Origin: a virus
Lineage: Duplodnaviria > Caudoviricetes
Length of the DNA stretch: 64,000 bases
IMG/VR virus record: IMGVR_UViG_3300008259_002461
Reading direction: 5' to 3' (one strand)
The notes under the pieces were generated by a model. The model saw only the letters and a list, made by a program, of their open reading frames with translations. It did not search any database and was not told where the DNA came from. Position 1 is the first letter of the stretch. The number at the start of each line of letters is the position of its first letter. The position numbers and the translations under genes are program-made. Of the stretch, positions 16,123-35,523 are shown piece after piece.

Positions 16123-16554
16123 ATGAGTGATATAGTTTGTAGTGGTGCATTATTCTATGCACTAAATTCTAAACGTTTTTTGTTCTTACATAGAGCCCGA
16201 GGAAAACAGGGCAATATGTGGGGCCTTGTAGGCGGCACTAACGAAGGTGCAGAAACTCCCTGGGAAGGTCTTAAGCGAGAAATTGTTGAAGAAATTGGTT
16301 CTGTAGAGATTAAGAAAACAATACCTTTAGAAACATTTATTTCTAACGATAATAAATTTAGTTTTCACACATACTTGTGCGTTGTAAAAGAAGATTTTAT
16401 CCCTAAACTAAATGAAGAACATGACGGGTATGCTTGGGTATCATTTTCTCAATGGCCAAAACCTCTGCATCATGGGTTGCGAAACACTCTTCAGAATAAA
16501 ACAAATCTAGCTAAACTACAAACTGTATTTCAAGTCATTGATTTAATTAATTAA
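16123..16554 (+). CDS. Nudix hydrolase
   Basis: Nudix box GGTNEGAETPWEGLKREIVEEIG; LNEEHDGYAW. Confidence 0.9.
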   Translation: MSDIVCSGALFYALNSKRFLFLHRARGKQGNMWGLVGGTNEGAETPWEGLKREIVEEIGSVEIKKTIPLETFISNDNKFSFHTYLCVVKEDFIPKLNEEHDGYAWVSFSQWPKPLHHGLRNTLQNKTNLAKLQTVFQVIDLIN

Positions 16555-18815: not shown

Positions 18816-20470
<1,655 letters not shown>

Positions 20471-21043
20471 TTAGGGTACCCAATTAAAGTTAATAACTAG
20501 TCTATGGTCGTGTGCAATTGGGCTTGTACTAGAGTGATAAGTTAAGCCGTCAAAAATAACTAATCTATCTGCCTTAGGTGATACTGTTTGATCAACAGTA
20601 AATTTTTTATTTTTGCTCCACTCGTAACTTGACACACTTAAACTTTGATCTCGTTTTTCTTTATAAAATATTGTATCACCGTCACTGTCGTTTACATAGT
20701 AAAGAGCTGTCATGTGGCCGTCGTCCCAATCTACATGAGGTTCATGAATAATTGGATATGGAGTTCTTGTAGTAAAGCCTGCTCTGATTCTAATTAATTT
20801 ACTGAGCGACATTTGACTTTCGTACAGTGCCTTAATTAATATCGATTGTGCTAGAGACATTAACGGATTCATAATCTCATTATTATTGTACATCATCAGC
20901 ACCCATGACGGGTCATAAGGTTGTATTCTGTTGTCAAATTGATTATATGCAGTATTTCTTAAATAGAACCAAGGTTGGTCAAGCATTAAATTTTCTAAAT
21001 AGGATGCATTTGCTGGTGAAGTTACGTTGTCTATAACTTTCAT
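20471..21043 (-). CDS. Fe(II)/2-oxoglutarate oxygenase-like protein
   Basis: HVD...LYYVNDSDGDT...FDGLTYH...RLVINFN (HxD...H...R). Confidence 0.8.
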   Translation of the reverse strand: MKVIDNVTSPANASYLENLMLDQPWFYLRNTAYNQFDNRIQPYDPSWVLMMYNNNEIMNPLMSLAQSILIKALYESQMSLSKLIRIRAGFTTRTPYPIIHEPHVDWDDGHMTALYYVNDSDGDTIFYKEKRDQSLSVSSYEWSKNKKFTVDQTVSPKADRLVIFDGLTYHSSTSPIAHDHRLVINFNWVP

Positions 21044-21071
21044 ATCGTGTCCTTTACGTCAAACAAGCTGG

Positions 21072-21082
21072 TAAATATTTAT
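21072..21082. promoter_or_regulatory. Overlapping bidirectional late-promoter motifs TAAATATTTAT
   Basis: TAAATA on plus (21072-21077) before ATG 21083; ATAAATA on minus (21082-21076) before ATG 21043. Confidence 0.55.
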
Positions 21083-21832
21083 ATGATATTCAATAGCCCC
21101 GAAATAAAAATTAAATTTAAAACTTTTGATCCATTTGTTTTAAAAAATCTAGCACCACTATCTGCTCAAAAAAAATATCCTTCATGGTTTAAAGATACAC
21201 CACCATTTAGCGGCGGTGGCGCCATATCAACAAACTTTGAGCCTATTCTAGCTCCAACTATTCGACGATGTCCAGCAATAAATGATTATTTTTCAACTGG
21301 TGTAACTATACCTAACTGGACCGATTTAGAATTTTTTATTGACGGACCTAAAAAGTCAATGGAATGGCGTTACTCAAATAATTACACTTCTATGGAATTA
21401 GTACAGCCGCACGATTCTAGTCAGTTTCCGCAATTAGCAAACAAGTACCTTCATGCAAAAATTGTAAGTCCGTGGATAGCTGAATGTAATTCTGACATAA
21501 AATGGTTTTTAACTAAGCCTAGTTATTTTTCTGAGTTTGATGATCAGGATGTGTTGTTCTGTGACGGAGTTGTTCAATTTTACAACAACTTTGTAACTAA
21601 TGTAAACTTATTTTTTCCTATTAGAGATCAATCCTATACTGTGAAATTTTCAGCAGGTGAGCCTTTTCAGAAGTATATTCCGCTTACAGAAAAGACGGTA
21701 AATATTACTACTGAATATTGTACCCAAGAGTATTATGACCTCGCAGCACTAAAAGGAAGAAAAATTTCCTACCATCTGGGAAAACTATACAATATTTTTA
21801 AAAGAAATAACCGCAAGGAGAGAGAAAAATGA
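21083..21832 (+). CDS. Hypothetical phage protein; start revised to 21083 (MIFNSP)
   Basis: TIRRCPAINDYFSTGVTIPNWTD motif; first gene of the plus-strand enzyme operon. Confidence 0.7.
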   Translation: MIFNSPEIKIKFKTFDPFVLKNLAPLSAQKKYPSWFKDTPPFSGGGAISTNFEPILAPTIRRCPAINDYFSTGVTIPNWTDLEFFIDGPKKSMEWRYSNNYTSMELVQPHDSSQFPQLANKYLHAKIVSPWIAECNSDIKWFLTKPSYFSEFDDQDVLFCDGVVQFYNNFVTNVNLFFPIRDQSYTVKFSAGEPFQKYIPLTEKTVNITTEYCTQEYYDLAALKGRKISYHLGKLYNIFKRNNRKEREK

Positions 21833-22200
21833 GTACCACAAGAATAGTCAACGGCGTAGAATACACAATACCGCCAGGAACAGAACATATATGGACTGTG
21901 CCAGAAGAAGTAGTAGTAACTGCTCCTAGAGATGAAGTAACTGTAATTGATGCAATCAACGGTCTAAGAGTGCAGGCTATAGTTCGAAATCAAAATGAAG
22001 CAAGAATACTTGCGTTAACAGATCAATTAGCTAGTATTTGGCAAAACTTTGTAGACACTACAATTACCAAAGCTGAATTAACAACACAGGTTGGTAATTT
22101 TAGAAACACTGAACTAGAAAATACAGAAGGTGTTGATAATATAACTGTTCAATTTTTTGAAACAGTAATTCTTAAAATGTTAAGCGAAAGCAATCCATGA
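21829..22200 (+). CDS. Hypothetical small acidic protein
   Basis: 123 aa; ATGA overlaps with both neighbours. Confidence 0.7.
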   Translation: MSTTRIVNGVEYTIPPGTEHIWTVPEEVVVTAPRDEVTVIDAINGLRVQAIVRNQNEARILALTDQLASIWQNFVDTTITKAELTTQVGNFRNTELENTEGVDNITVQFFETVILKMLSESNP

Positions 22201-23795
22201 TAAAGCCAGTTAAAAAAATTATAATAGTAGGCGGCGGCAGCGCAGGTTGGATGAGTGCCGCTGCATTAATAAAAGCATATCCTGAAAAAGAGATTGTTGT
22301 AATTGAAAGTCCAAATGTTCCAATCGTAGGCGTAGGAGAAAGCACACTTGGCGGAATTAATGACTATTGTAAATTTTTAGAAATTGACGAAAAAGATTTC
22401 ATGACATTTACTGATGCAAGTTATAAAATGAGCATCAAGTTTACTGACTTTTACGAAAAAGATGCAGGTGGATTTCATTATCCGTTTGGAAGACCATTAA
22501 CACAAGGTACTATTAACGGAATGAATGATTGGCTCGTTAAAAAAGCACTATATCCAGATACTCCAATCGGTGATTATGTAAACTGCTTTTTTCCGGCCGC
22601 TGCTCTATGGGATCATAACAAGTTTGCGTTAAACAACTACGGACTTTTTGATAACTACGAACCAGACAATGATGTAGCATATCATTTTGATGCAACAAAA
22701 TTTGGTGCTTGGCTTAGAGAAAGATATTGCAAGCCTAGAGGTGTAAAACACATACCTACTACTGTAATAGATATTAAAGTAAACGAAAATGGTGTAGAAA
22801 AACTTGTACTTGAGTCAGGCGATGAAATTTCTGCTGATTTATATGTTGACTGTACTGGCTTCAAAAGTATTCTGTTAGCAGGCGCTCTAAAAGAAGAGTT
22901 TGTATCATATAGTAATATGTTGCCAAACAATAAAGCTATAGCAACTCGAATTCCATATAAAGATAAAGAAAAAGAATTAGAACCATTTACTAATAGTACA
23001 GCTATTGGCAATGGATGGGTATGGAATATTCCTAGTTGGGAACGCTTAGGTACAGGATATGTATATAGTGATAAATTTATTACTCCAAAAGATGCTAGAG
23101 AAGAATTTAAACAACATCTAATGAGCGATAAAATGGTAGTGCCTAGAACTAGAGAAGAAGTTGATGCTCTCGAGTTTAACGATATTAGTATGCGTGTTGG
23201 AATTCACAAAAGAACTTTTGTAAAAAATGTTGTTGCTATTGGATTATCTGCAGGATTTATTGAACCACTAGAATCAAATGGCTTGTATACTGTACACGAG
23301 TTTTTATTTAAATTAATTAAAACACTTGAGCGTCCAGCAATTACCCAATGGGATAAAGATGTATACAATGCAGCAACATTTGGTATGTGGAGAAATTTTG
23401 CACAATTTGTTGCAATGCACTACGCATTAAGTATCAGGGACGATACAGAATATTGGAAGGCTAATGCTAATCGAGTTTATTCTCCAGGCATGCCGTCATT
23501 AGAGCCAGAAACTGCTATAGGATTTTATAAACTTCAAGGCGCAAAAATGTTTGAGTACGGTCATGATTCAGACATAGCAGGAATTAATTGGATTAGTGTA
23601 GGAATGAATTATTTTGTTTCTGATAAGACAACTGTAACTCTTAGACAAAATTTAAGAAGAGAAAATTTTAGAATTACTTACGACCCTATTTTTAGAATGT
23701 GGGAAGAAAGAAAAGCTCGCTGGAATGAAAGTGCAAAAAATTACGGAAGTCTTTATCAATATTTAAAAGACAACATTCATAAAGGACAAGAATAA
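22197..23795 (+). CDS. Flavin-dependent halogenase 1 (tryptophan halogenase family)
   Basis: GGGSAG FAD motif, GVGEST, ASYKMSIKF (catalytic Lys position), WVWNIP, FIEPLESNG. Confidence 0.9.
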   Translation: MIKPVKKIIIVGGGSAGWMSAAALIKAYPEKEIVVIESPNVPIVGVGESTLGGINDYCKFLEIDEKDFMTFTDASYKMSIKFTDFYEKDAGGFHYPFGRPLTQGTINGMNDWLVKKALYPDTPIGDYVNCFFPAAALWDHNKFALNNYGLFDNYEPDNDVAYHFDATKFGAWLRERYCKPRGVKHIPTTVIDIKVNENGVEKLVLESGDEISADLYVDCTGFKSILLAGALKEEFVSYSNMLPNNKAIATRIPYKDKEKELEPFTNSTAIGNGWVWNIPSWERLGTGYVYSDKFITPKDAREEFKQHLMSDKMVVPRTREEVDALEFNDISMRVGIHKRTFVKNVVAIGLSAGFIEPLESNGLYTVHEFLFKLIKTLERPAITQWDKDVYNAATFGMWRNFAQFVAMHYALSIRDDTEYWKANANRVYSPGMPSLEPETAIGFYKLQGAKMFEYGHDSDIAGINWISVGMNYFVSDKTTVTLRQNLRRENFRITYDPIFRMWEERKARWNESAKNYGSLYQYLKDNIHKGQE

Positions 23796-23796
23796 T

Positions 23797-24429
23797 ATGT
23801 TGGTTAACAATATTTTTGCTGGAAGGCTTGAACCGTCAGCTACTGTAGGCGGGTGCATAGATATTTTTGAAAATGCTTGGCCTGAGCCAGAGTTAACTAT
23901 TGCAAGGATTGAACAAGAGTGTTCAAATATTAATTCAGGTGTTGGTTGGAGTAGAGCAGGAACCGTAGGTCAAGGGCATCGACAACAAGCTCGTACTAAT
24001 TTAGGGTTAGGTATTACCTTAGGCGGCGAATCTGTTGATAGTCAAACTATGAAAGACATACACAATCAAATGTATTTTCTTTTATTAGCATCTACAATTC
24101 CGTATACTGAACGATATGAAATGAATGAATACTTGTATCATGAACCGTACCAAGCATTAAAATATAGAGACGGTGAAGAATATAAAGCACATTACGACGG
24201 TGGAACTCAATCAGGTAGATGTATTAGTGCAGTCGTATATCTCAACGACGAATACGAAGGTGGACACATTGAGTTTCCTAATTTTAAAATTAAGATAAAA
24301 CCTCAAAAAGGTATGTTGATTTTATTTCCATCTAATTTTGCGTATAAACATGTTGCACATCCTGTAACACAAGGAACAAAATATAGTCTAGTTACTTGGA
24401 TTCACGATCGTCCAATTCAAGGAATGTAA
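23797..24429 (+). CDS. Fe(II)/2OG oxygenase, prolyl-4-hydroxylase-like
   Basis: HYD...SAVVYLNDEYEGG...PQKGMLILFPS...H...V..GTKYSLVTW. Confidence 0.88.
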   Translation: MLVNNIFAGRLEPSATVGGCIDIFENAWPEPELTIARIEQECSNINSGVGWSRAGTVGQGHRQQARTNLGLGITLGGESVDSQTMKDIHNQMYFLLLASTIPYTERYEMNEYLYHEPYQALKYRDGEEYKAHYDGGTQSGRCISAVVYLNDEYEGGHIEFPNFKIKIKPQKGMLILFPSNFAYKHVAHPVTQGTKYSLVTWIHDRPIQGM

Positions 24430-24431
24430 CA

Positions 24432-25079
24432 ATGACTAATGCGGATCTTTTTCAAAAAAATAAGTATGTGCAAGTTAATAATGTATTGTCGCCCGAGCTG
24501 ATCAATATAGCAACTACCTATGCGTTATTAGATGAAAGAAATGATCTATCATTAGAGGAAGGCGACTCTCCACAAATTCATAATTCGCATAGCAAGTATG
24601 CTGATACGTTAATAGAAGCTTTTTTATTGTATCTGCATCCTATGATGGAAGAAAATACAGGTCTTAAGTTACATCCAACCTATTCGTATTATAGAGTTTA
24701 CAAACCTGGCGCTGATTTAGTAAAACACATCGATCGTCCTAGTTGCGAAATTTCTACTACAGTTACCTTAGGTTTTGATTATAAGGGTGCTGATTACGAA
24801 TGGCCTATATTTGTTGGCGATGCTAGATGTGCTATGCAGCCAGGTGATCTTGTAATTTATAGAGGCTGTGAAGTAGAACATTGGCGCGAAGTATTTGATG
24901 CTCCGACTAATTCGTTTCATGTGCAATTTTTCTGTCATTATGTTGATGCTAACGGACCGTATGCAGATTTTAAGTTTGATAAAAGACCGTTTATTGGATA
25001 TGATAAAGAAGGTAAATTAAACAAAACTGTTTCCAAACATTATTTTCCAAACAAAAAATATTTGACATTTACAGGATAG
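24432..25079 (+). CDS. Fe(II)/2OG oxygenase (PKHD-type-like); start revised to 24432
   Basis: KHIDRPSCEISTT...WPIFV...PGDLVIYRGCEVEHWRE...FFCHYVD. Confidence 0.8.
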   Translation: MTNADLFQKNKYVQVNNVLSPELINIATTYALLDERNDLSLEEGDSPQIHNSHSKYADTLIEAFLLYLHPMMEENTGLKLHPTYSYYRVYKPGADLVKHIDRPSCEISTTVTLGFDYKGADYEWPIFVGDARCAMQPGDLVIYRGCEVEHWREVFDAPTNSFHVQFFCHYVDANGPYADFKFDKRPFIGYDKEGKLNKTVSKHYFPNKKYLTFTG

Positions 25080-25080
25080 T

Positions 25081-25644
25081 ATGATAGAAGTATTTGATAA
25101 TATTCTATCCGCCGAAGAGTGTGATCACATAGAGCAGTTTTTAAGAGATCCAAAATTTCCTTGGTTTTTATCTATAGGACACAATCATTGTACAACAGAT
25201 TTTGATAATATTAAAAAAAATTCAAACTCTTGGTCTGGTGAAGCACTGTTACTTACACATGTATTTTATCTTGATAAATTAAAAAATTCTGATAATTATC
25301 TATTGTCAGATTTTATATTAAATAGATTCTTAGATCGTTCTAAAATTCAATTTACAGAACTATTTAGATCTAAAGCAAATCTACAACCAGCATCGCATAA
25401 TGCTAATCAAATATATACAACTCCACACATTGATGGTAATAGTGACCATAAAGTCCTAATATATTATGCCAACAACTGCGACGGAGATACGTTTATTTTT
25501 AATGATCATGCTACAGGATCTATACTAAAACAAGTTACTCCTAAAAAGGGAAGATTTTTATTATTTGATGGAAATCTATATCACGCTGCTGGCTTTCCAA
25601 GCGAATCAAATTTTAGACTTAATGTAAATTTTAATTTAATATGA
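25081..25644 (+). CDS. Fe(II)/2OG oxygenase-like protein, paralog of 20471 and 27800
   Basis: PHID...LIYYANNCDGDT...FDGNLYHA...RLNVNFN. Confidence 0.8.
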   Translation: MIEVFDNILSAEECDHIEQFLRDPKFPWFLSIGHNHCTTDFDNIKKNSNSWSGEALLLTHVFYLDKLKNSDNYLLSDFILNRFLDRSKIQFTELFRSKANLQPASHNANQIYTTPHIDGNSDHKVLIYYANNCDGDTFIFNDHATGSILKQVTPKKGRFLLFDGNLYHAAGFPSESNFRLNVNFNLI

Positions 25645-26231
25645 TACACGGTAAAATAGAAGATTTTATTGGCATTTACGAAAATGCTGTTAGTGCAGAA
25701 CATTGCAATGCTATGATCAACTACTTTGAAAGTCTTAGAGACTATAATCTTGTTATTGATCAAGATCAATATACTACACAAGCTACTGTAAGAAAAGACG
25801 AATCAGTATTTTTATGCCACCCTGATGTAATAACATTGCCTAAAGGTTCACCTATTATTTTTCCGTTTGCAGACGCATTATGGAAATGCTACGAAGATTA
25901 TACTAAAGAGTTTGAAATGCTAAGAACTGCTGCCAAACACGGTTTTTATATGTTGCGTATACAGCGAACTGATAAAGGCGGAGGCTTTCATAATTGGCAT
26001 TTTGAAAATACTGGAAATGAAACATCAAATAGATTAGTCACATTTATGATGTATCTTAACGATGTAGAAGAAGGAGGTGAAACAGAATTCCTTTATCTCC
26101 ATAAAAGAATAAAACCTAAAGCAGGTACTATGCTAATATGGCCGTCTACCTATACACACACGCATCGAGGAAATCCTCCGCTAAGTGGAACAAAGTATAT
26201 TATAACAGGATGGTTAACATACTTTGAATAA
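25641..26231 (+). CDS. Fe(II)/2OG oxygenase, prolyl-4-hydroxylase-like
   Basis: WHFE...FMMYLNDVEEGGETEF...PKAGTMLIWP..YTHTHRGNPP...KYIITGW. Confidence 0.88.
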   Translation: MIHGKIEDFIGIYENAVSAEHCNAMINYFESLRDYNLVIDQDQYTTQATVRKDESVFLCHPDVITLPKGSPIIFPFADALWKCYEDYTKEFEMLRTAAKHGFYMLRIQRTDKGGGFHNWHFENTGNETSNRLVTFMMYLNDVEEGGETEFLYLHKRIKPKAGTMLIWPSTYTHTHRGNPPLSGTKYIITGWLTYFE

Positions 26232-26237
26232 GTTAAT

Positions 26238-27800
26238 ATGATTCATATAGATAAAAATTTTAAATTTGTAATTGTAGGCGGAGGTAGTGCTGGATGGATT
26301 TCTGCACTATTTGTTCGTGCAAACTTTCCTGATAGTCAGATCACTGTTATACAAAGTAGCGAAATAGGAATACTTGGAGCAGGTGAAGGTACTACTCCTC
26401 ATATTATAGATTTTTTAGATGAAATTGATGTTCCTGTAAGCAGACTAATCAAGGATGCAAAAGCAGTTTTAAAAAGCGGTATTAAATTTTCTAATTGGAA
26501 CGGTGATAGAAAATACTACTACCATTCGTTTATGGATAACCCAGAGTTGGATCATACTATATTCAGCGAATTAAAGCACACAAAGTTACCATTATTAGAT
26601 CTCGAAGTGATTGCTAACGGAGGATCATTAGATGACATAGGTTTTAATTCAGCAGCGTCTGATAGAAATTGTGTGAGATTTATTCCTAATCCATCTGCTA
26701 CTAACAAAGATTTAGATCCTATACTACACTTTACTAGATTAGGAAGAACTGCGCTTCATTTTGATGCTAACTTACTAGCATCGTGTCTTGAAAATATAGG
26801 CAGGTCAAGAGGCATTAATGTCATAGACGGCATTGTTACAAACTTTACTACTACAGACAGTGGACATATTACATCAGTTAATATTGATTCAAAAAAGATT
26901 GAATGCGATTTTGTGTTTGATTGTTCGGGCTTTAAGAGATTAGCCATTGGTAATTTGTATAAAACGCCATGGAAAAGTTACAAAGAGTATTTGCCTGCAA
27001 AGCGAGCAATGCCATTCTTTATTCCAAATAACTCACAAATAATTCCTCCTTACACAGATTCAACCGCTATGAAATGGGGATGGATGTGGAAAATTCCAGT
27101 TCAAGGCAGATTTGGTTGCGGATATGTTTATGATAGCGATAGAGTTTCTGATGAAGATGCCAAAGCAGAACTAGATCAAGAAATAGGTATTGAGGTTGAA
27201 GTGCCTAGGATATTAAACTTTGAACCAGGTAGATTTGAAAAAATATATGAAAAGAATTGTTTAGCTATTGGACTAAGTTCGGGCTTTATAGAACCGTTAG
27301 AGGCTACCTCTATATGGACGTCATTGATGATGCTGAATGCATGGATAGAAAATCCGGCGGCCATAACACATAACGATCAGACTGCTAGAGATAAAGTTAA
27401 TCAACGGCATTGTGACATGAACGATAACACTCTAGGATTTGTTTATTTTCATTATATCACAAAAAGGGATGACACTACGTTTTGGAGTAATTTCACTAAA
27501 GACAATAAGATTCCAGCATCGTTGCATAAGTTATTAGAAGAATCAAAACACACAATACCTAGTTATGATATGTTTTCTAACATAGGTCTAGACTGGGCTG
27601 CAAAGAGCTTTTTAGCATGCGGTAATGGACAAAAGTTTTTTAATCCTGATCATGCTAAAAAAATATTTGATGCTTACTATAATGGTAAAAGAAAAGACGA
27701 TTATGATCTATTAAAGTATCAGTACTTTAGAAATATTAATTTAAATTTAACAACATTAATAGATCACTATTCTTTTATAGAATATATGAGAAATAATTAA
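26238..27800 (+). CDS. Flavin-dependent halogenase 2 (tryptophan halogenase family)
   Basis: GGGSAG, GAGEGT, AVLKSGIKF, WMWKIP, FIEPLEATS. Confidence 0.9.
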   Translation: MIHIDKNFKFVIVGGGSAGWISALFVRANFPDSQITVIQSSEIGILGAGEGTTPHIIDFLDEIDVPVSRLIKDAKAVLKSGIKFSNWNGDRKYYYHSFMDNPELDHTIFSELKHTKLPLLDLEVIANGGSLDDIGFNSAASDRNCVRFIPNPSATNKDLDPILHFTRLGRTALHFDANLLASCLENIGRSRGINVIDGIVTNFTTTDSGHITSVNIDSKKIECDFVFDCSGFKRLAIGNLYKTPWKSYKEYLPAKRAMPFFIPNNSQIIPPYTDSTAMKWGWMWKIPVQGRFGCGYVYDSDRVSDEDAKAELDQEIGIEVEVPRILNFEPGRFEKIYEKNCLAIGLSSGFIEPLEATSIWTSLMMLNAWIENPAAITHNDQTARDKVNQRHCDMNDNTLGFVYFHYITKRDDTTFWSNFTKDNKIPASLHKLLEESKHTIPSYDMFSNIGLDWAAKSFLACGNGQKFFNPDHAKKIFDAYYNGKRKDDYDLLKYQYFRNINLNLTTLIDHYSFIEYMRNN

Positions 27801-28387
27801 TGATTGTAAATAACGTTCTTTCTACTAACGATTATAACAACTTATACAATCTAGTATCGGGCGTAAACTTCCCGTGGTATTATCAACCTGATATAGCATT
27901 TAGAGGGTTTGATGAGCCTGTGCAAGATCCACGTATGTTTCCTAGTCATGGTTTTACTCATGTAGTATGGGATTGTGATCAAGGAAAAGTATCAGATGTT
28001 TTGCAATTTGTAGCACCAATTATTGAAAGTTTTCAAAAACAACTTGGTGTTAAAATTAATAATTTTTTAAGAATAAAAATAAATTTACAAACACCAATTA
28101 TTGGATATACTAACGATCACTATAATGGCCCGCATATTGATAGATTTGATCCGCACAAAACACTCATCTATTATCTTAATGACAGTGACGGTGATACTTT
28201 CATTTTTAATAAAGAATACAATCCTAACGATAAATCAACTTGGCATCCAGTTAGTCCGGATATTAAAGAAAGAGTTACTCCAATTGCAAATTCTTTATAT
28301 TTTTTAGAAAACGGATTCACTTATCATTCAGGAAGCAATCCAGTTAATAGTCCAAGAAGAATCACAATTAATATCAATTACAACTAA
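27800..28387 (+). CDS. Fe(II)/2OG oxygenase-like protein, paralog of 20471 and 25081
   Basis: PHID...LIYYLNDSDGDT...YHSGSNP...RITININ. Confidence 0.8.
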   Translation: MIVNNVLSTNDYNNLYNLVSGVNFPWYYQPDIAFRGFDEPVQDPRMFPSHGFTHVVWDCDQGKVSDVLQFVAPIIESFQKQLGVKINNFLRIKINLQTPIIGYTNDHYNGPHIDRFDPHKTLIYYLNDSDGDTFIFNKEYNPNDKSTWHPVSPDIKERVTPIANSLYFLENGFTYHSGSNPVNSPRRITININYN

Positions 28388-28977
28388 TGGCAAATTTAAT
28401 AATAGATAGATGGTTTTCAAATCCGGTATGGGAAACTGATCTAAATTTAAACAATGACGAACTTATAGCATATGCTTACGAGCTAAAATCAAAGAAAGAC
28501 GGAATACATAAATCTAATAGAGAAGGGTGGCAATGTTCTGATATTGAAAATCCACCTAACTCTTATTTAAATTTAATAGAATCAATAAACAACACGCTGG
28601 TCGATGTGCATCGATCAATGGGATTAAAAATAGAATATCCATCATATGTTAAAGGCAGTTGGATTAATATTAATCCATATGGCAGTTACAATCTTAGACA
28701 CCTGCATCCAAGAAGTTTATTCAGTGGAGTATATTATCCTAAAGTTCCAGAAGGCGAATGTGGTGATTTAATTTTTTATAGAGATCATGTAATGCTCAGT
28801 TACTTACCAAATCATATTGTAGAAAATTGGAATGATATGACTAGTGGAACAACTGTATATAAAGCAAGGACAGGAATGCTTTTAATTTTTCCTAGTTGGT
28901 TAGAACATTCTGTTACTACTAACCTTACTAGTGAAGATAGGATTTCAATAAGTTTTAATACTAACTACGACTATTAA
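28387..28977 (+). CDS. Putative Fe(II)/2OG oxygenase (TIGR02466-like)
   Basis: WININ...RHLHP...SGVYY...LLIFPSWLEHSV..N...RISISFN. Confidence 0.82.
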   Translation: MANLIIDRWFSNPVWETDLNLNNDELIAYAYELKSKKDGIHKSNREGWQCSDIENPPNSYLNLIESINNTLVDVHRSMGLKIEYPSYVKGSWININPYGSYNLRHLHPRSLFSGVYYPKVPEGECGDLIFYRDHVMLSYLPNHIVENWNDMTSGTTVYKARTGMLLIFPSWLEHSVTTNLTSEDRISISFNTNYDY

Positions 28978-29378
28978 ATAGACGTTTTTCCTCTAGTCAG
29001 CACACCGTAGTTTTTATCGTTAAATTTGTCCATAAATCTAAAGTGTGCATCTTTAGAATATGGAATTTTTAATTCGTCTATTCTTTCTAATACTTGAGGT
29101 TGTACGAATCTTCCATAGAACGCTTCTAGATCTTCACCCCAGTTATGTCGTATGATATAATATTCTGCATAAGGGCACCAAGCTGCATATACTGCTGTGC
29201 CGCCGCCTCGTTCTATGATAACTTCCCATATTTCAACATCTTCGATTTCCATAATCCTGTCGTAGCTCCAATCAGGACTAGGTGGTAAAACTATTTTATC
29301 TGAGTCCATGTTATTATCATTCCACACTTCGTCATTAAAATCTTCAAAAATATTCTTAGTTGTCTTAAACTGAGGCAT
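28974..29378 (-). CDS. Hypothetical acidic, Trp-containing protein
   Basis: 134-aa ORF coupled to the upstream 69-aa ORF. Confidence 0.7.
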   Translation of the reverse strand: MPQFKTTKNIFEDFNDEVWNDNNMDSDKIVLPPSPDWSYDRIMEIEDVEIWEVIIERGGGTAVYAAWCPYAEYYIIRHNWGEDLEAFYGRFVQPQVLERIDELKIPYSKDAHFRFMDKFNDKNYGVLTRGKTSI

Positions 29379-29574
29379 TATCTGTTAGATCCTTTATCGA
29401 TAAATTAAGTTTTTTCCAGCTATGTTTTCCTTCGGTAGCATGCCCAGTATAAAGTTCTCCAGTTTCTTGATCAATTAAGATCCATTTCTCTGGACACTTA
29501 GTTACTACTGTAAGTGTTATTGCAGATTCTAATTCTGCAACTTTTTTACTGTTTTTTAATTTTCTTACCTTCAT
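29365..29574 (-). CDS. Hypothetical small protein
   Basis: 69-aa ORF with AGGTA RBS, starting 9 nt after halogenase 3 stop. Confidence 0.65.
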   Translation of the reverse strand: MKVRKLKNSKKVAELESAITLTVVTKCPEKWILIDQETGELYTGHATEGKHSWKKLNLSIKDLTDNASV

Positions 29575-29583
29575 TACAGATAC

Positions 29584-31011
29584 CTATTGATAATTTGTAG
29601 TAATATGTTTTAGAAAGTCTGTTTCAGCAATGTGATACATGTTAGATTCTATTAGATCTTTGTGCGCCGATTCAGGATTAAGTAAGTCAAGTCCTGCCAT
29701 ACTCCAATTCCATAAGCCAATTGCAGGTGCACCAAAATTATTAGCTATTTCAAAATAACTTACTAACTTATTTTTTGATCGAGTAATAATATTATCAGCG
29801 AACGGACTAACAATATTGTTTTCTTTTATATGGCGCCAGAATGGAGTATCTGCTCTAGTGCCTTGGTAGTGCATAGAAACAAAGTCTAGATTAAGATCAT
29901 AAAAATGTGCAGTTCGCGTGTTATATGAATCTTGATTTTCTATTAGGTTTGTAGTTTTAAGATCACTTGATAAGAAGTCATTAATAAACAATAGTAGTTG
30001 AGCAATAGTAGTATGGATACTTGTAGCTTGTAGCGGTTCAACAAAACAACTTGCTAGTCCTAAGGACAATACATTTTTTTCCCAGAACTTTTCTGATCTG
30101 CCTGGGTCAAAATTTATTATCTTAATAGGAGTAATTTCTCTTCCAAGTAACTGCTCCACTTCAAGTTTAGCATCTTCTGCTGATATAAAATTATTGTTGT
30201 AAACATAACCGCATCCTCGTCGAGTTTGTAAAGGTATGTCCCACATCCAACCAGATGACAGTGCCGTAGCATCAGTCCAAGGTTTTATTTTATCATTTTG
30301 AGTATAGTCTAAAAGAAATGGCATTGCAGTATTGCAGGGCAAATACTTACTGTAGGACTTCCATCCTACATTTAATTTTTTCATTAGAATTTTATTAAAG
30401 CCGCTGCAATCAATAAAAAATTCTGATTCAATTTTTCTACCATCATCTAGAACTACTGATTGTATATGTCCGTTTTGAGGATCAAGCACACAGTCTTTAA
30501 CTATAGCGTCAATGTGTGTGATGTTATCTTTTATGCAGCGTTCTTTAAAAAACTTTCCAACTTTGTGTGCATTAAAATGAAACGCATTAAACACATTGTA
30601 GTTTCTTTCTACTTCGTAGTCTAGACCTATTTTAGAAGCGATATGAGCTTTGTCTTTACCAAACTTGTGCAGTACATATTTAAACACATGATCATTCATT
30701 CTACCAGCTGAAGGACTGCCGTCTAGGGGTGTAAAAAATGAAGTATTATCACCTAACCAATTATTAAATTTAATACCAATTTTGTTAGTTGCATCACAGT
30801 AGTCTACAAACTCTTGTAGATTAATGTCAGTTTTGAAATATCTTCCAGCTAAGAGATCAGTGAAGAATCCTGTAGATCCTTCTCCGGCACCAATAATGCC
30901 AATTTCACTTGATTCAATTACTGTAATTTTGTGTATGTTTGGCTGCGACTTACTTATACAATAAGCCGCTAGCCAACCGGCTGTGCCGCCGCCAACGATT
31001 GTTATATTCAT
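29584..31011 (-). CDS. Flavin-dependent halogenase 3 (tryptophan halogenase family)
   Basis: GGGTAG, GAGEGST, ATNKIGIKF, WMWDIP, FVEPLQATS. Confidence 0.9.
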   Translation of the reverse strand: MNITIVGGGTAGWLAAYCISKSQPNIHKITVIESSEIGIIGAGEGSTGFFTDLLAGRYFKTDINLQEFVDYCDATNKIGIKFNNWLGDNTSFFTPLDGSPSAGRMNDHVFKYVLHKFGKDKAHIASKIGLDYEVERNYNVFNAFHFNAHKVGKFFKERCIKDNITHIDAIVKDCVLDPQNGHIQSVVLDDGRKIESEFFIDCSGFNKILMKKLNVGWKSYSKYLPCNTAMPFLLDYTQNDKIKPWTDATALSSGWMWDIPLQTRRGCGYVYNNNFISAEDAKLEVEQLLGREITPIKIINFDPGRSEKFWEKNVLSLGLASCFVEPLQATSIHTTIAQLLLFINDFLSSDLKTTNLIENQDSYNTRTAHFYDLNLDFVSMHYQGTRADTPFWRHIKENNIVSPFADNIITRSKNKLVSYFEIANNFGAPAIGLWNWSMAGLDLLNPESAHKDLIESNMYHIAETDFLKHITTNYQ

Positions 31012-31056: not shown

Positions 31057-32253
31057 TTAAGTATTTCTGTATCGAATTACAACGACTCCAGGGCCGCCGT
31101 CACCACTTTGTGTGTTACTCCAATATCCGCCACCACCGCCTGCACCTGAATTTGTAGCGCCTGATTGTCCTGCAACTGAGCCTGTTCCGCCCTCACCTCC
31201 ACCAAACGCATTTAAACTTCCACCGTGAGCGCCTGCAAGTCCGTAATGACCGTAGTTACCTGGGGCGTGTGTACCTGCGCCACCACCGCCAGCATATCGA
31301 GTAAGAGTTCCTGTTACTTGACTTGCTAGGCCAGCACCACCTGTGCCCATTTCGTTACCACTGCTTGTTGGTTTACCAGACGATCCAGCACCGCCTCCAC
31401 CACCACCGCAGTGAATGGTAGTAGAACCTGCTGCCCAGCCAAAGCCGCCACCGTGAGCACCAAAGCCGCCAGGGTGACCTTGACCTGCTATACCGCTGCC
31501 ATATCCATTGCCTTCCATGGAAATATGATCGTTATTGTTTCCTGTAGGCGTACCTTGAAGTGTAGCATTTGGCATTCCTGCTAACCAAGGATGGTTAGTT
31601 CCTTGATTTCCGTGACCGCCGGGCGCTTGTGGCCACCAACCGCCCTCACCTCCTGCTCCTGGTGTGTGTCCGCCAGGGCCACCGCCACCACTACCACCGT
31701 TATTCAATCGTATTACTGAATGTCCAGAAGTATATGAACTACCTCTACCGCCGCCGATAGCATTGTACTGCTGAGGTATTCCTGCTCCTACTACACTAGA
31801 AGGATTTCCTGGGTTTTGATTGTTAGCATTATGCTGTGTTTCTCTTGAGCCGCCTGCGCCTACGTTAATGGTATAGTTGCCTGCGGGCAAACTGGCCTGC
31901 GATTCATATATCATTCCGCCTGCGCCACCACCACCACCAATTTGTGCACCACCACCACCACCGGCAACCATTAGTACTTCTACCTGTCCTGGATATGTCA
32001 TAGTAAAGGTTGTAGATCCACTGGTAAATGTGTGTATTCTATATCCACCTGTGGTACTAAGTGTACCGCCAGAACCTAGTGCAGATCCTTCGAGGGTTAC
32101 CCAAACAGTTCCGTTGTATACTTCATTTCTTGCGTTATCGGTATTGTATCGAATCATTCCAGCACTTGGAGTGACTGGACGTTGTGCAGTTGTTCCACTA
32201 GGAAGTTGAATAAATCCACTATCGTTTACTGTTACATTTTTTAACGTTGCCAT
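31057..32253 (-). CDS. Glycine-rich virion protein, paralog 3
   Basis: MATLKN.TVND.GFI start, GYRIHTFTSG, poly-Gly motifs, C-terminal GGPGVVVIRY. Confidence 0.75.
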   Translation of the reverse strand: MATLKNVTVNDSGFIQLPSGTTAQRPVTPSAGMIRYNTDNARNEVYNGTVWVTLEGSALGSGGTLSTTGGYRIHTFTSGSTTFTMTYPGQVEVLMVAGGGGGAQIGGGGGAGGMIYESQASLPAGNYTINVGAGGSRETQHNANNQNPGNPSSVVGAGIPQQYNAIGGGRGSSYTSGHSVIRLNNGGSGGGGPGGHTPGAGGEGGWWPQAPGGHGNQGTNHPWLAGMPNATLQGTPTGNNNDHISMEGNGYGSGIAGQGHPGGFGAHGGGFGWAAGSTTIHCGGGGGGAGSSGKPTSSGNEMGTGGAGLASQVTGTLTRYAGGGGAGTHAPGNYGHYGLAGAHGGSLNAFGGGEGGTGSVAGQSGATNSGAGGGGGYWSNTQSGDGGPGVVVIRYRNT

Positions 32254-32256
32254 TTA

Positions 32257-33285
32257 TTATATCCTATATTTCACAATAACCACACCCGGGCCGCCCAAGC
32301 CTGCTGGATTTTCGCCGCCTGGGTGAGCACCACCTCCACCTCCACCACCTCGGTTAGTTCCACCAGCTGTAGCTACTGCGCCGCCGTGTGTACCTGAATT
32401 TCCTGTGCCGTCGCCGGCACCACCTGGATCTGGACTATGGCCGTAGGCAGGATTAACGTGTGTTCCGCCAGCACCGCCAGCTGCATAAATTACTGCTGAG
32501 CCGCCTATTGCATTTGTAATTCCCTGTCCGCCGTGACAGCGAACCCAATTAGAATATCTGCTAGTACCCGGATTTGGATATCCTGGGCCAGTGCCGTGGT
32601 GACCGTATCCGCCTGGATGTCCTTGTCCTATTACGCCTGTACCGCCTGGATGTTCACCGGGATAGCTGGTATATACTGTACCTGGAGTTCCGTTTCCGCC
32701 TGGACCGCCGCCACCTGAACCACCGCTCATTGCAGGAATTGTACTGCCTGCACTATATTGGCCACCTTTGCCGCCGCCCACTGCTTCGATGTTTGCATTT
32801 GGTCCAACAAAACTTGATGGACCGCCGGATGTTCCTTCATCTGAATAGTGATGGAATCCGCCTGCGCCACCGCCACCTCTATTAATTGTATAATTCTGTC
32901 CACCTATGACCGATACTGCTGATTCATAAACGTATCCGCCTGCACCGCCTCCGCCGCCGATTGGAGCGCCACCACCGCCACCACCTACTACCAATACTTC
33001 TGCTCTACCTGTATAAGGAGCACTAAAAGTACCACTGCTAGTAAATGTATGAATTCTATAGCCGCCTGCTGTTGTAATAGTACCGCCGGTTGCTATTGTG
33101 GTTCCTGAACCTGCACTTATTGACCCGTCTGCTGTTTTCCAAACTCCGTTAACATACTGTTCAACTTCGTTAGTAGTAGTGTTAAATCTAAAATCACCGT
33201 TGGTATTGGTTCTTGCAGCAGTATTACCTACGGCTGCTTGTATAAATCCAGTGTCGTTTACTGTTAAATTCTTTAGCGTTGCCAT
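32257..33285 (-). CDS. Glycine-rich virion protein, paralog 2
   Basis: Same N-terminus, GYRIHTFTS, poly-Gly motifs, GGPGVVIVKY. Confidence 0.75.
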   Translation of the reverse strand: MATLKNLTVNDTGFIQAAVGNTAARTNTNGDFRFNTTTNEVEQYVNGVWKTADGSISAGSGTTIATGGTITTAGGYRIHTFTSSGTFSAPYTGRAEVLVVGGGGGGAPIGGGGGAGGYVYESAVSVIGGQNYTINRGGGGAGGFHHYSDEGTSGGPSSFVGPNANIEAVGGGKGGQYSAGSTIPAMSGGSGGGGPGGNGTPGTVYTSYPGEHPGGTGVIGQGHPGGYGHHGTGPGYPNPGTSRYSNWVRCHGGQGITNAIGGSAVIYAAGGAGGTHVNPAYGHSPDPGGAGDGTGNSGTHGGAVATAGGTNRGGGGGGGAHPGGENPAGLGGPGVVIVKYRI

Positions 33286-33287
33286 TC

Positions 33288-34313
33288 TTAACCTCGATAT
33301 CTTACAATAACCACGCCTGGACCACCTGGGCCGCCGCCTTGTGGTTCTGGTGAATATGGACCACCACCACCACCACCACCTAAGTTAGTGCCGCCAGCTT
33401 GACCGTTTTGACCCGGAAGTGTATTTCCTAAACTGCCTCTACCTGCAAGAGTTGATACTCCGTGACCTGGGCTGTGATAGCCGCCGCCACCACCGCCTGC
33501 TCTCCAAACTACACCGCCGCCAATGTTTGATGCCATGCCTTCACCGCCACGACCTTGTTGATTACGATTTGAGCGTCCGTAGCCCATTGAGCCTGCGCCA
33601 CCGCCTCCACCACCACCATAGTGTGTACCTGTAGGAGTTCCGTTATAATGAGCACCTACGCCACCTGGGTGTCCTTGTCCTGCTGTTCCAGCTGCTCCAG
33701 CATGTATAGTTTCTGGACCACCATTCCATCCTGGGCCACCACCACCTGATCCACCGCCACTAGTTGGTTGACTACCTGGGGGATAATGACATCCTCGGCC
33801 ACCGCCTGTTGCTACAATTGATACTGGAGTACCGCCGCCAAATGTGCTAGGATTACCTGAAGTACCATCATTTGCACTATGACTTGAACAGCCATTGCCA
33901 CCTGTTCCAACAACTGCGGGATACGCAGTTCCAGCAACTACAGGAACTCCGCTAACATAGATATAGCCGCCTGCGCCGCCTCCACCTGAAATACTGTGGC
34001 CTCCGCCACCGCCTGCAATTGTTAGTACTTCTACAACACCGTCTTTGGTTGGTGTAAATTGTTGTGTTCCAGAAGTAAATGTGTGAATTCTATATCCTGC
34101 TGCGGTAGTGATTGCTCCGCCTGTACTAGCATTACCTACTGTTGACTCTTCTACACGTACCCAAGCACTACCATTCCAATATTCATTAGATGCAATATCT
34201 GTATTGTATCTTATCATACCAACCGTTGGACTACCTGGTCGCTGTGCGTTTGTTCCGCTAGGAAGTCTGATAAACCCAGTATCGTTTACAGTAAGATTTT
34301 TTAATGTTGCCAT
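33288..34313 (-). CDS. Glycine-rich virion protein, paralog 1
   Basis: Same N-terminus, GYRIHTFTSG, poly-Gly motifs, GGPGVVIVRY; TAATG coupling to upstream fibre. Confidence 0.75.
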   Translation of the reverse strand: MATLKNLTVNDTGFIRLPSGTNAQRPGSPTVGMIRYNTDIASNEYWNGSAWVRVEESTVGNASTGGAITTAAGYRIHTFTSGTQQFTPTKDGVVEVLTIAGGGGGHSISGGGGAGGYIYVSGVPVVAGTAYPAVVGTGGNGCSSHSANDGTSGNPSTFGGGTPVSIVATGGGRGCHYPPGSQPTSGGGSGGGGPGWNGGPETIHAGAAGTAGQGHPGGVGAHYNGTPTGTHYGGGGGGGAGSMGYGRSNRNQQGRGGEGMASNIGGGVVWRAGGGGGGYHSPGHGVSTLAGRGSLGNTLPGQNGQAGGTNLGGGGGGGPYSPEPQGGGPGGPGVVIVRYRG

Positions 34314-35167
34314 TACTTAGCTGCCCTTAATTCATTAATTTCTTGTTTTAAAGTTTTAATAGATTCAATTAGATAAGCTGTTAATTTAGTATATTTAATA
34401 CCTATAGTGTTACCTAGGTCATCTTTAGTAACTAAGTCTGGTAACACTTCATCTGTCCATTCAGCAATCAACCCTGCTTCGTGTTCTTTATTATCAATAC
34501 GATCGTAAGTTACGCCACTTAGTTTTAAAATGCTGTCTAGTGCATTCTCAATTGGCAAAATATTTTCTTTTAATGTTATACTAGAAGTTTCAACAATGCC
34601 TGCCGCAGTTAATTGACCACCAACACCTACTCCACCTGTAACTACTAATGCTCCGTTTGTAACAGCATTTGATACTGTACTTGCTGTTACACGCATCTCT
34701 GTTGAACTCAATACTCCTGTACTTGGCACAAAAGTTAGTTTAGTACTGCTTACAGATACTGTTGACACTGTTCCTGTAGTAGCAGTAGTAATTGCTGGAT
34801 AATATACTGCTGTGTCAGCTGCTTGGTTAGCCACACTAACGAATGGAGCAACCCAACTCAAATCTCCGCTTGCGTTACTTCTTAATACTGTATTATCAAC
34901 GGCTGCGGCTGGAAACGTATAAGTTACGTTAGCACTAACAGTTGCGGGTGCCCTAAGTGCTACAAAATTGCTAGAGTCAGCATCGGCTAATCTTAAACTA
35001 TTTTGAGCATTAATCTGCATAGAACTAACAGACTGCACAATGCCAGAGCCATTTGGTTCTAACAATACATTAGCATTAGACACTACAGATTGAATACTAT
35101 TATTAACGGTAGTTAGGCTACCTAGCACTGCTCGACCTACTTTACCTGATGTGATTTTTCTAGACAT
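34313..35167 (-). CDS. Tail fibre protein with C-terminal intramolecular chaperone (peptidase S74-like)
   Basis: SSITLKENI...GLIAE...IKYTKLTAYLIESIKTL + coiled coil; Ser-x4-Lys dyad spacing kept. Confidence 0.82.
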   Translation of the reverse strand: MSRKITSGKVGRAVLGSLTTVNNSIQSVVSNANVLLEPNGSGIVQSVSSMQINAQNSLRLADADSSNFVALRAPATVSANVTYTFPAAAVDNTVLRSNASGDLSWVAPFVSVANQAADTAVYYPAITTATTGTVSTVSVSSTKLTFVPSTGVLSSTEMRVTASTVSNAVTNGALVVTGGVGVGGQLTAAGIVETSSITLKENILPIENALDSILKLSGVTYDRIDNKEHEAGLIAEWTDEVLPDLVTKDDLGNTIGIKYTKLTAYLIESIKTLKQEINELRAAK

Positions 35168-35186: not shown

Positions 35187-35507
35187 TTATACTGTTGATG
35201 TTTCTATTCCGTAGACAACAACATCAGTGTTTGCTTGCGTTGAATAGGCATAAATTGTCCTACCATTTTGTATTACAACACCGCCACGTTCTAATACTCC
35301 ACCTGGTAAAACTTCTGCATTATATTCAATGTAGTTACCTGGTGCTGGTATATTAGGATTAACTGCTAATGCTATTCGCACATTAATTGCTGTTGCATTT
35401 TTATTACAAATGCTTATAGTTACCACACTAAATGTATCTGCGGGCGGGCCGTATATACTTGTGTAGGTTGTTGCTGCCAGGGCAGCATTTGCTAAAATTC
35501 CGTTCAT
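35187..35507 (-). CDS. Small beta-rich protein, paralog of 48602-48931 and 61085-61441
   Basis: SICNK...V.I...YIEY...LPGG...DVVVYGIE pattern. Confidence 0.7.
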   Translation of the reverse strand: MNGILANAALAATTYTSIYGPPADTFSVVTISICNKNATAINVRIALAVNPNIPAPGNYIEYNAEVLPGGVLERGGVVIQNGRTIYAYSTQANTDVVVYGIETSTV

Positions 35508-35523
35508 GTTATTTGTTCTCCAA

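Follow-up and report, generated by a model that had tools for sequence, protein, structure and literature searches.

A Syn9-type cluster of halogenases and 2-oxoglutarate oxygenases beside the glycine-rich fibre genes of a phage, and its possible role in fibre tailoring

What use would a phage have for three flavin halogenases and seven iron- and 2-oxoglutarate-dependent (Fe/2OG) oxygenases set among its fibre genes? The question is raised by a 64,000-nucleotide stretch of viral DNA (IMG/VR record IMGVR_UViG_3300008259_002461; Duplodnaviria, Caudoviricetes), which is referred to at its full 64-kb length as the window. Positions 20471-31011 hold the gene cluster in question, here called the island, which comprises 14 open reading frames (ORFs) according to ORF listing and Pfam and PHROG scans. 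The island is real, intact and well conserved, and it is a further example of the dioxygenase-halogenase cluster of cyanophage Syn9 rather than a new system. Annotations of cyanophage genomes have listed arrays of 2OG oxygenases and halogenases since 2005-2010, and for the phage halogenase VirX1 there is a crystal structure and a record of use in biocatalysis. We know of no established natural substrate for any of these phage halogenases or oxygenases. The answer that we favour, tentatively and at a little under an even chance on the strength of gene linkage, is that the island enzymes tailor phage fibre proteins in the cytoplasm, late in infection.

Enzymes and gene order of the island

The island encodes three flavin halogenases, seven Fe/2OG oxygenases of four families, one cysteine-containing protein with a dUTPase fold (the dUTPase-fold Cys protein), and three small ORFs without an assigned family. 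These genes are tightly packed between a phage GroEL gene and glycine-rich fibre genes. A first-pass annotation, made from the letters alone, had counted the same three halogenases and seven oxygenases of four subtypes, and the Pfam and PHROG scans confirm both counts and subtypes; it had missed the dUTPase-fold Cys protein at 21083-21832 and the three small ORFs. Its description of the genes as largely translationally coupled is borne out by the ORF coordinates, since neighbouring ORFs overlap at start and stop codons or lie 0-6 nucleotides (nt) apart. It had also described a single late operon. A late-type motif does precede the plus-strand operon, but the region is made up of three transcription units, not one:

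20471-21043, minus strand: unit 1, a single oxygenase gene
21083-28977, plus strand: unit 2, ten translationally coupled genes
29584-31011, minus strand: unit 3, Hal3, at the end of the fibre operon and within the fibre transcription unit

The individual genes, with lengths in amino acids (aa), are as follows:

20471-21043, minus: 2OG oxygenase, phrog_274 (E 1e-38), with H103-x-D105...H170, R181 and weak PF13759/PF13640 matches
21083-21832, plus: 249-aa dUTPase-fold protein, phrog_7084, homologue of Syn9 gp43 and first gene of the plus operon
21829-22200, plus: 123-aa ORF without a Pfam or PHROG family, found in six loci only, the closest relatives, at 48-59% identity
22197-23795, plus: Hal1, VirX1-type halogenase (PF04820, E 3e-100), with GxGxxG at 12, K77, WVWNIP at 274 and E359
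23797-24429, plus: ox_23797, 2OG oxygenase of the prolyl 4-hydroxylase (P4H) type (PF13640, E 4e-18; phrog_61), with H132-x-D134...H185
24432-25079, plus: 2OG oxygenase, phrog_2954 (E 2e-44), with H111-x-D113...H162 in ORF numbering
25081-25644, plus: 2OG oxygenase, phrog_274, with H116-x-D118...H168 and R179
25641-26231, plus: ox_25641, P4H-type 2OG oxygenase (PF13640, E 1e-16; phrog_61, E 5e-52), with H120-x-E122...H173/175
26238-27800, plus: Hal2, halogenase (PF04820, E 2e-94), with K79, WMWKIP at 282 and E355
27800-28387, plus: 2OG oxygenase, phrog_274, with H112-x-D114...H176 and R187
28387-28977, plus: 2OG oxygenase, PF13759/phrog_81 (PF13759, E 2e-22), with His105-x-His107...His174 and R185, last gene of the plus operon
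28974-29378, minus: 134-aa conserved protein, terminal gene of the fibre operon, 82-88% identical in close relatives
29365-29574, minus: 69-aa ORF
29584-31011, minus: Hal3, BrvH-like short halogenase (PF04820, E 4e-93), with K77 and Gln328, inside the fibre transcription unit

All three halogenases keep the GxGxxG and WxWxIP motifs and the catalytic Lys (equivalent to PrnA K79: K77 in Hal1, K79 in Hal2 and K77 in Hal3), in agreement with the first-pass annotation. One correction is needed: the catalytic Glu (equivalent to PrnA E346, within EPLES) is present in Hal1 (E359) and Hal2 (E355) but is replaced in Hal3 by Gln328. The EPLQA segment of Hal3 aligns with EPLES of BrvH and Thal, and the Gln is common to four orthologues (L003, L004, L007 and L049); Hal3 itself is missing from the related loci L005, L006, L008 and L010.

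The three enzymes belong to different branches of the family. Hal1 can be aligned with VirX1 from end to end (PDB 6qgm; residues 5-529, E 1e-99), and its best matches in cultured phages are cyanophage halogenases (47% identity in Sf-CH11, 36% in Syn9/Syn10). The nearest solved structures are Th-Hal (5lv9) and PrnA for Hal2, and BrvH (6frl, E 4.5e-56) for Hal3. When Hal1-3 are compared with true Trp halogenases, the best-scoring stretch usually ends at about residue 400-470, before the C-terminal region that forms the Trp-binding module; among solved halogenases, only VirX1 aligns through to the end of Hal1. Judged by sequence, the three do not look like true Trp halogenases. VirX1, from cyanophage Syn10, has a large open active site and accepts many small aromatics, and its natural substrate is not known (Gkotsi et al. 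2019, as reviewed in PMC8407142).

In alignments with related loci, the metal triad and the basic residue are kept in at least 90% of homologues for all seven oxygenases. For the two P4H-type enzymes, the nearest solved structures are protein prolyl 4-hydroxylases: ox_23797 is nearest to the Bacillus anthracis P4H 3itq (E 5e-9), followed by the PBCV-1 P4H 5c5t and a Chlamydomonas P4H, and ox_25641 is nearest to 3itq (E 1e-9) and then 5c5t. The PF13759-type oxygenase at 28387-28977 has as its sole solved relatives 3bvc and 2rg4, which are uncharacterised marine-bacterial proteins. Its family shows a conserved His-x-His...His site at the place where the other oxygenases have His-x-Asp/Glu...His. 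The phrog_2954 oxygenase, whose ORF opens at TTG 24396 and whose likely start is ATG 24432, has no Pfam match and no solved relative; its triad is conserved in 40 homologues, and its family is labelled ‘ferrochelatase’ in phage records.

Pairwise identity is 31-35% among the halogenases and 26-37% within oxygenase families, and none is detectable between oxygenase families. Both sets are therefore old paralogues, not recent copies. Island proteins are 63-88% identical to those of the closest relative, L003, similar to the 61-85% of core virion proteins. Together with the Pfam, PHROG and active-site checks, this level of conservation makes the enzymes look functional. Gene content turns over one gene at a time among close relatives: Hal3, ox_25641 (missing from L003 and L004) and additional copies of phrog_274 and phrog_81 are present in some and absent from others, and the flanks stay fixed. 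In two distant relatives (L088, 5227-6903; L090, 4652-6337), a Methyltransf_24 protein of 558-561 aa lies between an oxygenase and a halogenase of the island.

The dUTPase-fold Cys protein starts at ATG 21083, according to homologue N-termini and an independent gene call, and matches Syn9 gp43 (BLAST E 2e-7). A search among 5.8 billion proteins returned 137 homologues, all metagenomic. All the homologue contexts that were opened are phage islands; they carry halogenases and PF13759/PF13640 oxygenases and are bordered by a giant structural protein on one side and by NUDIX plus T4 gp15 genes on the other. Cys63, Asp81, His110, Lys126, Trp35 and Trp131 are invariant (alignment A1), and a Pfam scan of all 17 A1 members at E up to 5 gave nothing meaningful and no SapC match. 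An AlphaFold (AF2) model built from 17 sequences has a predicted local confidence (pLDDT) of 85, and Foldseek relates it to dUTPases and dCTP deaminases with a probability of 1.0 and a low TM score (by query 0.27-0.38).

The fold raises the idea that this protein binds a pyrimidine nucleotide and that the halogenases and oxygenases modify bases. The dUTPase/dCTP-deaminase fold itself and the presence of dNMP kinase and NUDIX genes within the same structural region speak for nucleotide or DNA modification. Against it, the fold match is weak, and the dUTPase motifs are not seen in the A1 invariant residues, in a comparison that was not a formal test. No island oxygenase has a Pfam match to the TET/JBP or AlkB families, and the island lies among late virion genes, not replication genes. 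We consider base modification very improbable.

Late-type motifs and linkage to the fibre genes

The minus-strand oxygenase and the plus operon diverge from a 39-nt spacer. In L003, L005, L006 and L008, its core, TATAAATATTTA, is kept and the remaining spacer diverges. The spacer contains one notable feature:

21071-21083, both strands: bidirectional late-promoter-like core GTAAATATTTATA, in which GTAAATA faces the plus operon and TATAAATA faces the minus-strand oxygenase

The late-promoter motif with which the first-pass annotation began the operon is thus present in kind but differs in detail. GTAAATA (21071-21077) precedes the plus operon, and the sole exact TATAAATA in the window (21083-21076) points at the minus-strand oxygenase. 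The exact TATAAATA was rejected as the late promoter of this phage, as its single occurrence in 64 kb is a strong depletion relative to the 10.6 +/- 3.6 expected from shuffles, and [AG]TAAATA was adopted as the working motif. Counting both strands, the window has 27 copies of this motif, 15 of which lie no more than 45 nt upstream of a start codon. In seven genes it stands at -11 to -14 from the ATG (for example 924-2504, 6023-7357, 13363-14463 and 21083-21832). The distance is -12 for the genes of the large terminase subunit (TerL), the tail tube and a 366-aa virion protein, and for the first island gene. The sheath gene has GTAAATA at -43, and ATAAATA lies 39 nt upstream of the oxygenase 20471-21043. 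By analogy with T4 late promoters, these positions support late expression of that oxygenase and of the coupled ten-gene run 21083-28977. Upstream of Hal3 there is only a near-match to the motif, and this gene probably rides on the fibre operon. A motif 11-14 nt before the ATG leaves no normal ribosome-binding-site leader, so the late mRNAs of these seven genes may be leaderless or have very short leaders.

Short contigs in metatranscriptome run X20 are identical to the unk261/unk123 junction, unk123, Hal1, Hal2 and the 106-aa fibre-operon gene. They were not used as expression evidence, since DNA carry-over is possible and they hold no timing information. For the Syn9 counterparts gp41-gp54, two transcriptome papers contain no statement about expression.

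The genes that adjoin Hal3 on the minus strand are the following:

31057-32253, minus: Gly-rich fibre protein 1 (28% Gly; PF21722, E 3e-12)
32257-33285, minus: Gly-rich fibre protein 2 (29% Gly; PF21722, E 3e-13)
33288-34313, minus: Gly-rich fibre protein 3 (30% Gly; PF21722, E 4e-14), with a conserved GQGHPGG motif (alignment A2)
34313-35167, minus: fibre protein with a C-terminal intramolecular chaperone domain (PF13884 Peptidase_S74, E 7e-11)
35187-42294, minus: 106-aa protein and a giant structural protein of 2256 aa that carries CBM_5_12 repeats; both belong to the upstream portion of the fibre operon, which is conserved

The AF2 model of Gly-rich protein 3 (pLDDT 73) matches, in Foldseek, the cyanophage Pam3 fibre 7ypx (E 4e-5), the Bxb1 tail-tip protein and the glycine-rich domain of ALK/LTK. 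By this modelled fold, the Gly-rich proteins are virion fibre proteins. Pfam matches and the fold of the neighbours confirm that fibre genes flank the cluster, as the first-pass annotation had stated. The 134-aa protein follows the Gly-rich genes on their strand in every locus and has no family in Pfam or PHROG; it is possibly a fibre assembly factor.

Linkage between island and fibre genes was followed in both directions. The forward set comprised 80 IMG/VR loci with Hal1 homologues of 46-85% identity, which carry one to five halogenases and zero to ten oxygenases each. Recognisable fibre or neck genes were found in 13 of the 18 loci having at least 3 kb on both sides, and a glycine-rich ORF in 8 of the 13 having at least 4 kb. 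The reverse set was gathered with a profile of the glycine-rich proteins (A2) and held 63 viral loci, 43 of them with at least 4 kb downstream; a halogenase lies just downstream of the Gly-rich genes in 30 of these 43, and oxygenases in 32. The first-pass annotation had proposed co-occurrence with Gly-rich genes as a check, and the result is positive both ways, with few independent events behind it. The order of giant protein, 106-aa protein, Peptidase_S74 protein, one to three Gly-rich proteins and then the island is found in dozens of loci. Gly-rich proteins matching the same profile adjoin the islands of Syn9, S-RIM44 and Sf-CH11, and in actinophage DSL-LC01 a halogenase follows directly after collagen-like fibre genes.

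The structural region shows two further features. Four giant structural proteins of 1708-2256 aa are encoded at 35524-60532 on the minus strand; two carry CBM_5_12 repeats, and one combines FG-GAP repeats with a LamG domain and a bactofilin-like segment. At 31400-33600, DNA contigs from other lake samples contain joints between the three Gly-rich paralogues, at the low threshold of 85% likeness; these may reflect mosaic recombination, paralogues or strain variants.

Possible substrates of the island enzymes

Pfam scans of nearly all window ORFs of at least 100 aa (924-2504, 6023-7357 and 8104-11463 were covered by PHROGs only) found no non-ribosomal peptide synthetase (NRPS), polyketide synthase (PKS), ATP-grasp enzyme, carrier protein, flavin reductase or transporter. 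This agrees with the first-pass annotation, which had seen no NRPS or PKS, flavin reductase or DNA-modification partner. The same scans revealed no precursor peptide of the ribosomally synthesised, post-translationally modified type, precursors below 60 aa not being searched. Fibre-protein tailoring is the best reading of the island because no scaffold-building enzyme accompanies it and two of its oxygenases resemble collagen-type prolyl hydroxylases. The gain and loss of single enzymes among close relatives is likewise easier to reconcile with independent tailoring enzymes than with a linear pathway.

Under this proposal, the oxygenases and halogenases would act as independent catalysts on newly made phage proteins in the cytoplasm, with the three neighbouring glycine-rich fibre-tip proteins as their main targets. 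The two P4H-type and five other oxygenases would hydroxylate side chains, for example Pro within the HPG motif, which is conserved, or those of Asp, Asn, Lys or His. Exposed Trp, Tyr or His would be halogenated by the three halogenases, with O2, halide and FADH2 that the host has reduced. All three transcription units would be made late in infection together with the fibre genes, and the outcome would be altered fibre stability or receptor-binding chemistry. Gene content, catalytic residues, late-type motifs and fibre linkage are observed in the sequence; substrate, chemistry and any benefit for the phage are inferred. The general form of the proposal, that phage halogenases and oxygenases modify their own glycine-rich fibre-tip proteins after translation, is in our judgement doubtful. 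If true, a flavin-dependent halogenase would for the first time be seen to halogenate a full-size ribosomal protein natively, and cyanophages and freshwater jumbo phages would share an enzymatic means of hardening virions or varying their receptor-binding surfaces.

A number of observations weigh against fibre tailoring. Composition and repeat counts found no collagen GXY repeats in any of the fibre proteins, Pro-Gly dipeptides number 8-10 per Gly-rich protein against about 5.5-6.6 expected from composition by our estimate, which is not significant, and X-Pro-Gly is over-represented only about 1.2-1.8 fold. We know of no flavin-dependent halogenase that acts natively on a full-size folded protein, and no modified residue has been observed anywhere so far. 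The linkage is also thinner than its counts imply. About a quarter of the Gly-rich loci (11 of 43) have no island nearby, and nine of these 11 fall within one clade of the Gly-rich protein tree. On that tree, island presence requires five changes, only two of them forced by well-supported branches. Because the changes are so few, counts such as 30 of 43 reflect few independent events (two to five) together with conserved synteny. Accessory genes often accumulate at hot spots beside fibre genes, and for this reason fibre adjacency alone may mean little. Related enzymes occur elsewhere as well. Those of pelagiphage HTVC008M lie among neck and terminase genes, with the halogenase between terminase genes, and in S-PM2 and P-SSM2 the halogenases have nrd and metabolic genes nearby. 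Where a Hal1-type gene stands alone, without oxygenases, its neighbours are sugar-nucleotide, glycosyltransferase, DNA polymerase or other genes, and a rule that these halogenases are always fibre-linked was rejected on that ground. The virion-protein tailoring that the first-pass annotation put forward as its lead thus retains the late-type motifs, the fibre linkage and Gly-rich co-occurrence, the lack of a scaffold or DNA-modification partner and the two P4H-like oxygenases, and is weakened by the few independent events and the other halogenase contexts.

The same weaknesses feed a sceptical alternative, in which a recombination hot spot has collected oxygenases and halogenases with no common function, for example for 2-oxoglutarate drain or nitrogen-stress signalling, and their adjacency to fibre genes is incidental. 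A 2OG/NtcA role in nitrogen stress has been proposed (Sullivan et al. 2010; PMC3037559), and both the hypervariable content of the island and the small number of events behind the Gly-rich association fit this view. Yet a halogenase, several oxygenase families and the dUTPase-fold Cys protein recur jointly from Syn9 to the window phage, the slot is not filled by other accessory genes, and the genes are translationally coupled and well conserved. A drain on 2OG would, moreover, leave the halogenases unexplained. An incidental collection is accordingly improbable.

The contexts of the lone Hal1-type genes bear on a further possibility, namely that the decorated polymer is a sugar (a virion-attached glycan, host capsule or lipopolysaccharide) and not a protein. 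Such genes stand beside a nucleotidyl transferase and a DegT aminotransferase (L027) or a glycosyltransferase (L033), and a glycosyltransferase is likewise found in DSL-LC01. The window encodes a sulfotransferase, and capsule decoration is among the options of Iyer et al. 2021 (PMC7824862). Set against this, the island has no sugar-handling genes, its P4H-type enzymes point to peptide substrates, and ordinary sugars lack the electron-rich aromatic or enol groups that flavin halogenases require of a substrate. Glycan or envelope tailoring is quite unlikely on this balance.

The published readings of related clusters differ from fibre tailoring, and this too must be counted against it. Iyer et al. 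2010 described the Syn9 array gp41-gp54, with ten dioxygenases, two halogenases and a dUTPase-fold Cys protein, and proposed the synthesis of a secondary metabolite (PMC2938197). For the related S-SSM6a cluster, Iyer et al. 2021 proposed a halogenated amino-acid or sugar metabolite, or capsule decoration (PMC7824862). The first-pass annotation could name no combined multi-enzyme cluster of this kind; these two had already been published. In the present case, a small-molecule pathway would convert a host metabolite (an indole, a phenol or an amino-acid derivative) into a halogenated, hydroxylated compound. While infection proceeds or upon lysis, this compound would serve as an antibiotic, a signal, a siderophore-like agent or a deterrent to grazers. 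The relatives of these halogenases that have been characterised all act on small molecules or peptides, as with the many small aromatics taken by VirX1 (PMC8407142). Bacterial relatives of the Syn9 gp52 and gp54 oxygenases occur in siderophore-like and NRPS neighbourhoods (PMC2938197), and some Hal1-type genes have non-structural contexts. However, the window as scanned, island included, supplies such a pathway with neither a scaffold-forming enzyme nor a carrier protein, a precursor peptide or an exporter. Gene-by-gene variation among close relatives is odd for a stepwise pathway, and the late-type motifs and the fixed position beside fibre genes also tell against it, as late expression gives a metabolite little time to help the infected cell. 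We regard a small-molecule product as rather unlikely, and fibre tailoring remains the reading that we prefer.

The carrier phage and comparison with known systems

Head, neck, sheath, tube and terminase genes of the T4 type are present in the window. The TerL encoded there is closest to that of Pseudomonas phage PA5oct (55%) and to those of other jumbo phages, and megablast of the island against 50,697 phage records gave no DNA-level match. The stretch occurs in lake and freshwater metagenomes of many studies, and an identical 249-aa protein is present on contigs of up to 226 kb, the longest examined being 197 kb. The left flank of the island carries a further marker:

18881-20470, plus: phage GroEL-like chaperonin (PF00118, E 2e-76), left island flank in the closest relatives (L003-L008)

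This GroEL is full-length, with no adjoining GroES, and in contrast to the island motifs it has a strong sigma-70-like promoter (TTGATA-18-TATAAT at 18816-18845). Its nearest cellular relatives, at 60-63% identity, are betaproteobacterial, which may hint at the host or the donor. Because of the PA5oct-like TerL, the lake metagenomes and the betaproteobacterial-type GroEL, the window phage is probably a freshwater T4-like jumbo phage and, by its marker genes, not a cyanophage.

Other enzymes are encoded among the virion genes of the window. A sulfotransferase (4569-5213, minus; PF03567, 30 bits against a cut-off of 22) lies in the packaging and neck block, 15 kb from the island. A TnsA-like endonuclease-domain protein (5213-5650, minus), a dNMP kinase-like protein (11873-12505, minus) and a NUDIX protein (16123-16554, plus) are also present, and NUDIX followed by gp15 forms the conserved island flank in distant relatives (L088).

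Four known systems can be set beside the island. The first is the collagen-type P4H of microbes and viruses (B. anthracis 3itq/5hv0; PBCV-1 5c5t), whose catalytic cores are matched by ox_23797 and ox_25641 (E 1e-9 to 8e-7) with the HxD/E...H triad kept; here too, a virus-encoded enzyme stands beside repetitive Gly-rich structural proteins. The alignment with the window oxygenases is, however, limited to about 90 C-terminal residues, and the fibre proteins of the window carry polyglycine runs and HPG motifs in place of collagen GXY repeats.

The second comprises the bacterial 2OG dioxygenase/sulfotransferase operons (beta-hydroxylase/PhyH-type), in which genes for glycine-rich or tail-collar proteins accompany those of the oxygenases. 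In the proposal of Iyer et al. 2010, these proteins are the substrates in bacteria, hydroxylated first and then sulfated. The window likewise encodes a sulfotransferase, but at a distance from the island, and the bacterial operons are cellular and lack flavin halogenases.

The third is VirX1, with which Hal1 shares a full-length alignment and the GxGxxG, Lys, WxWxIP and Glu features. Hal1 is nevertheless only about 36% identical to it, and Hal2 (Th-Hal/PrnA-like) and Hal3 (BrvH-like) represent other branches. The lake habitat would also make an iodide preference less obvious for Hal1.

The closest counterpart is the Syn9 gp41-gp54 neighbourhood. Both contain tandem, distant classical 2OG dioxygenases of several families (seven of four PHROG families in the window), at least two Trp-halogenase-family enzymes with the Rossmann motif and catalytic Lys (three in the window, PF04820 E <1e-92), and a dUTPase-fold Cys protein (21083-21832, homologous to Syn9 gp43). 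Both also lie directly after glycine-rich fibre-like genes in a T4-like phage. In Syn9, fibre genes gp32-34 and glycine-rich gp35-39 precede gp41-gp54, and in S-RIM44 and Sf-CH11 the order is a giant structural protein, glycine-rich proteins, halogenases and oxygenases, and then neck genes. The differences are that the window phage has a PA5oct-like terminase, a lake habitat and a betaproteobacterial-type GroEL, that Hal3 lies within the fibre operon and is without the catalytic Glu, and that the island ORFs have no JmjC/Cupin_4 Pfam match at E <=0.01 and hence no MINA/No66-type JmjC member such as Syn9 gp49. That member is a component of the Syn9 example, not a strict requirement. The present island thus extends the cluster to a widespread freshwater lineage, non-cyanophage by its marker genes, in which the same three-part module (halogenases, several oxygenase families and the dUTPase-fold Cys protein) again lies behind late-type motifs beside glycine-rich fibre genes. 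It also sharpens a testable fibre hypothesis, narrowing the question to cultured phages (Syn9/Syn10, S-RIM44 and Sf-CH11) and to modified residues in their glycine-rich virion proteins.

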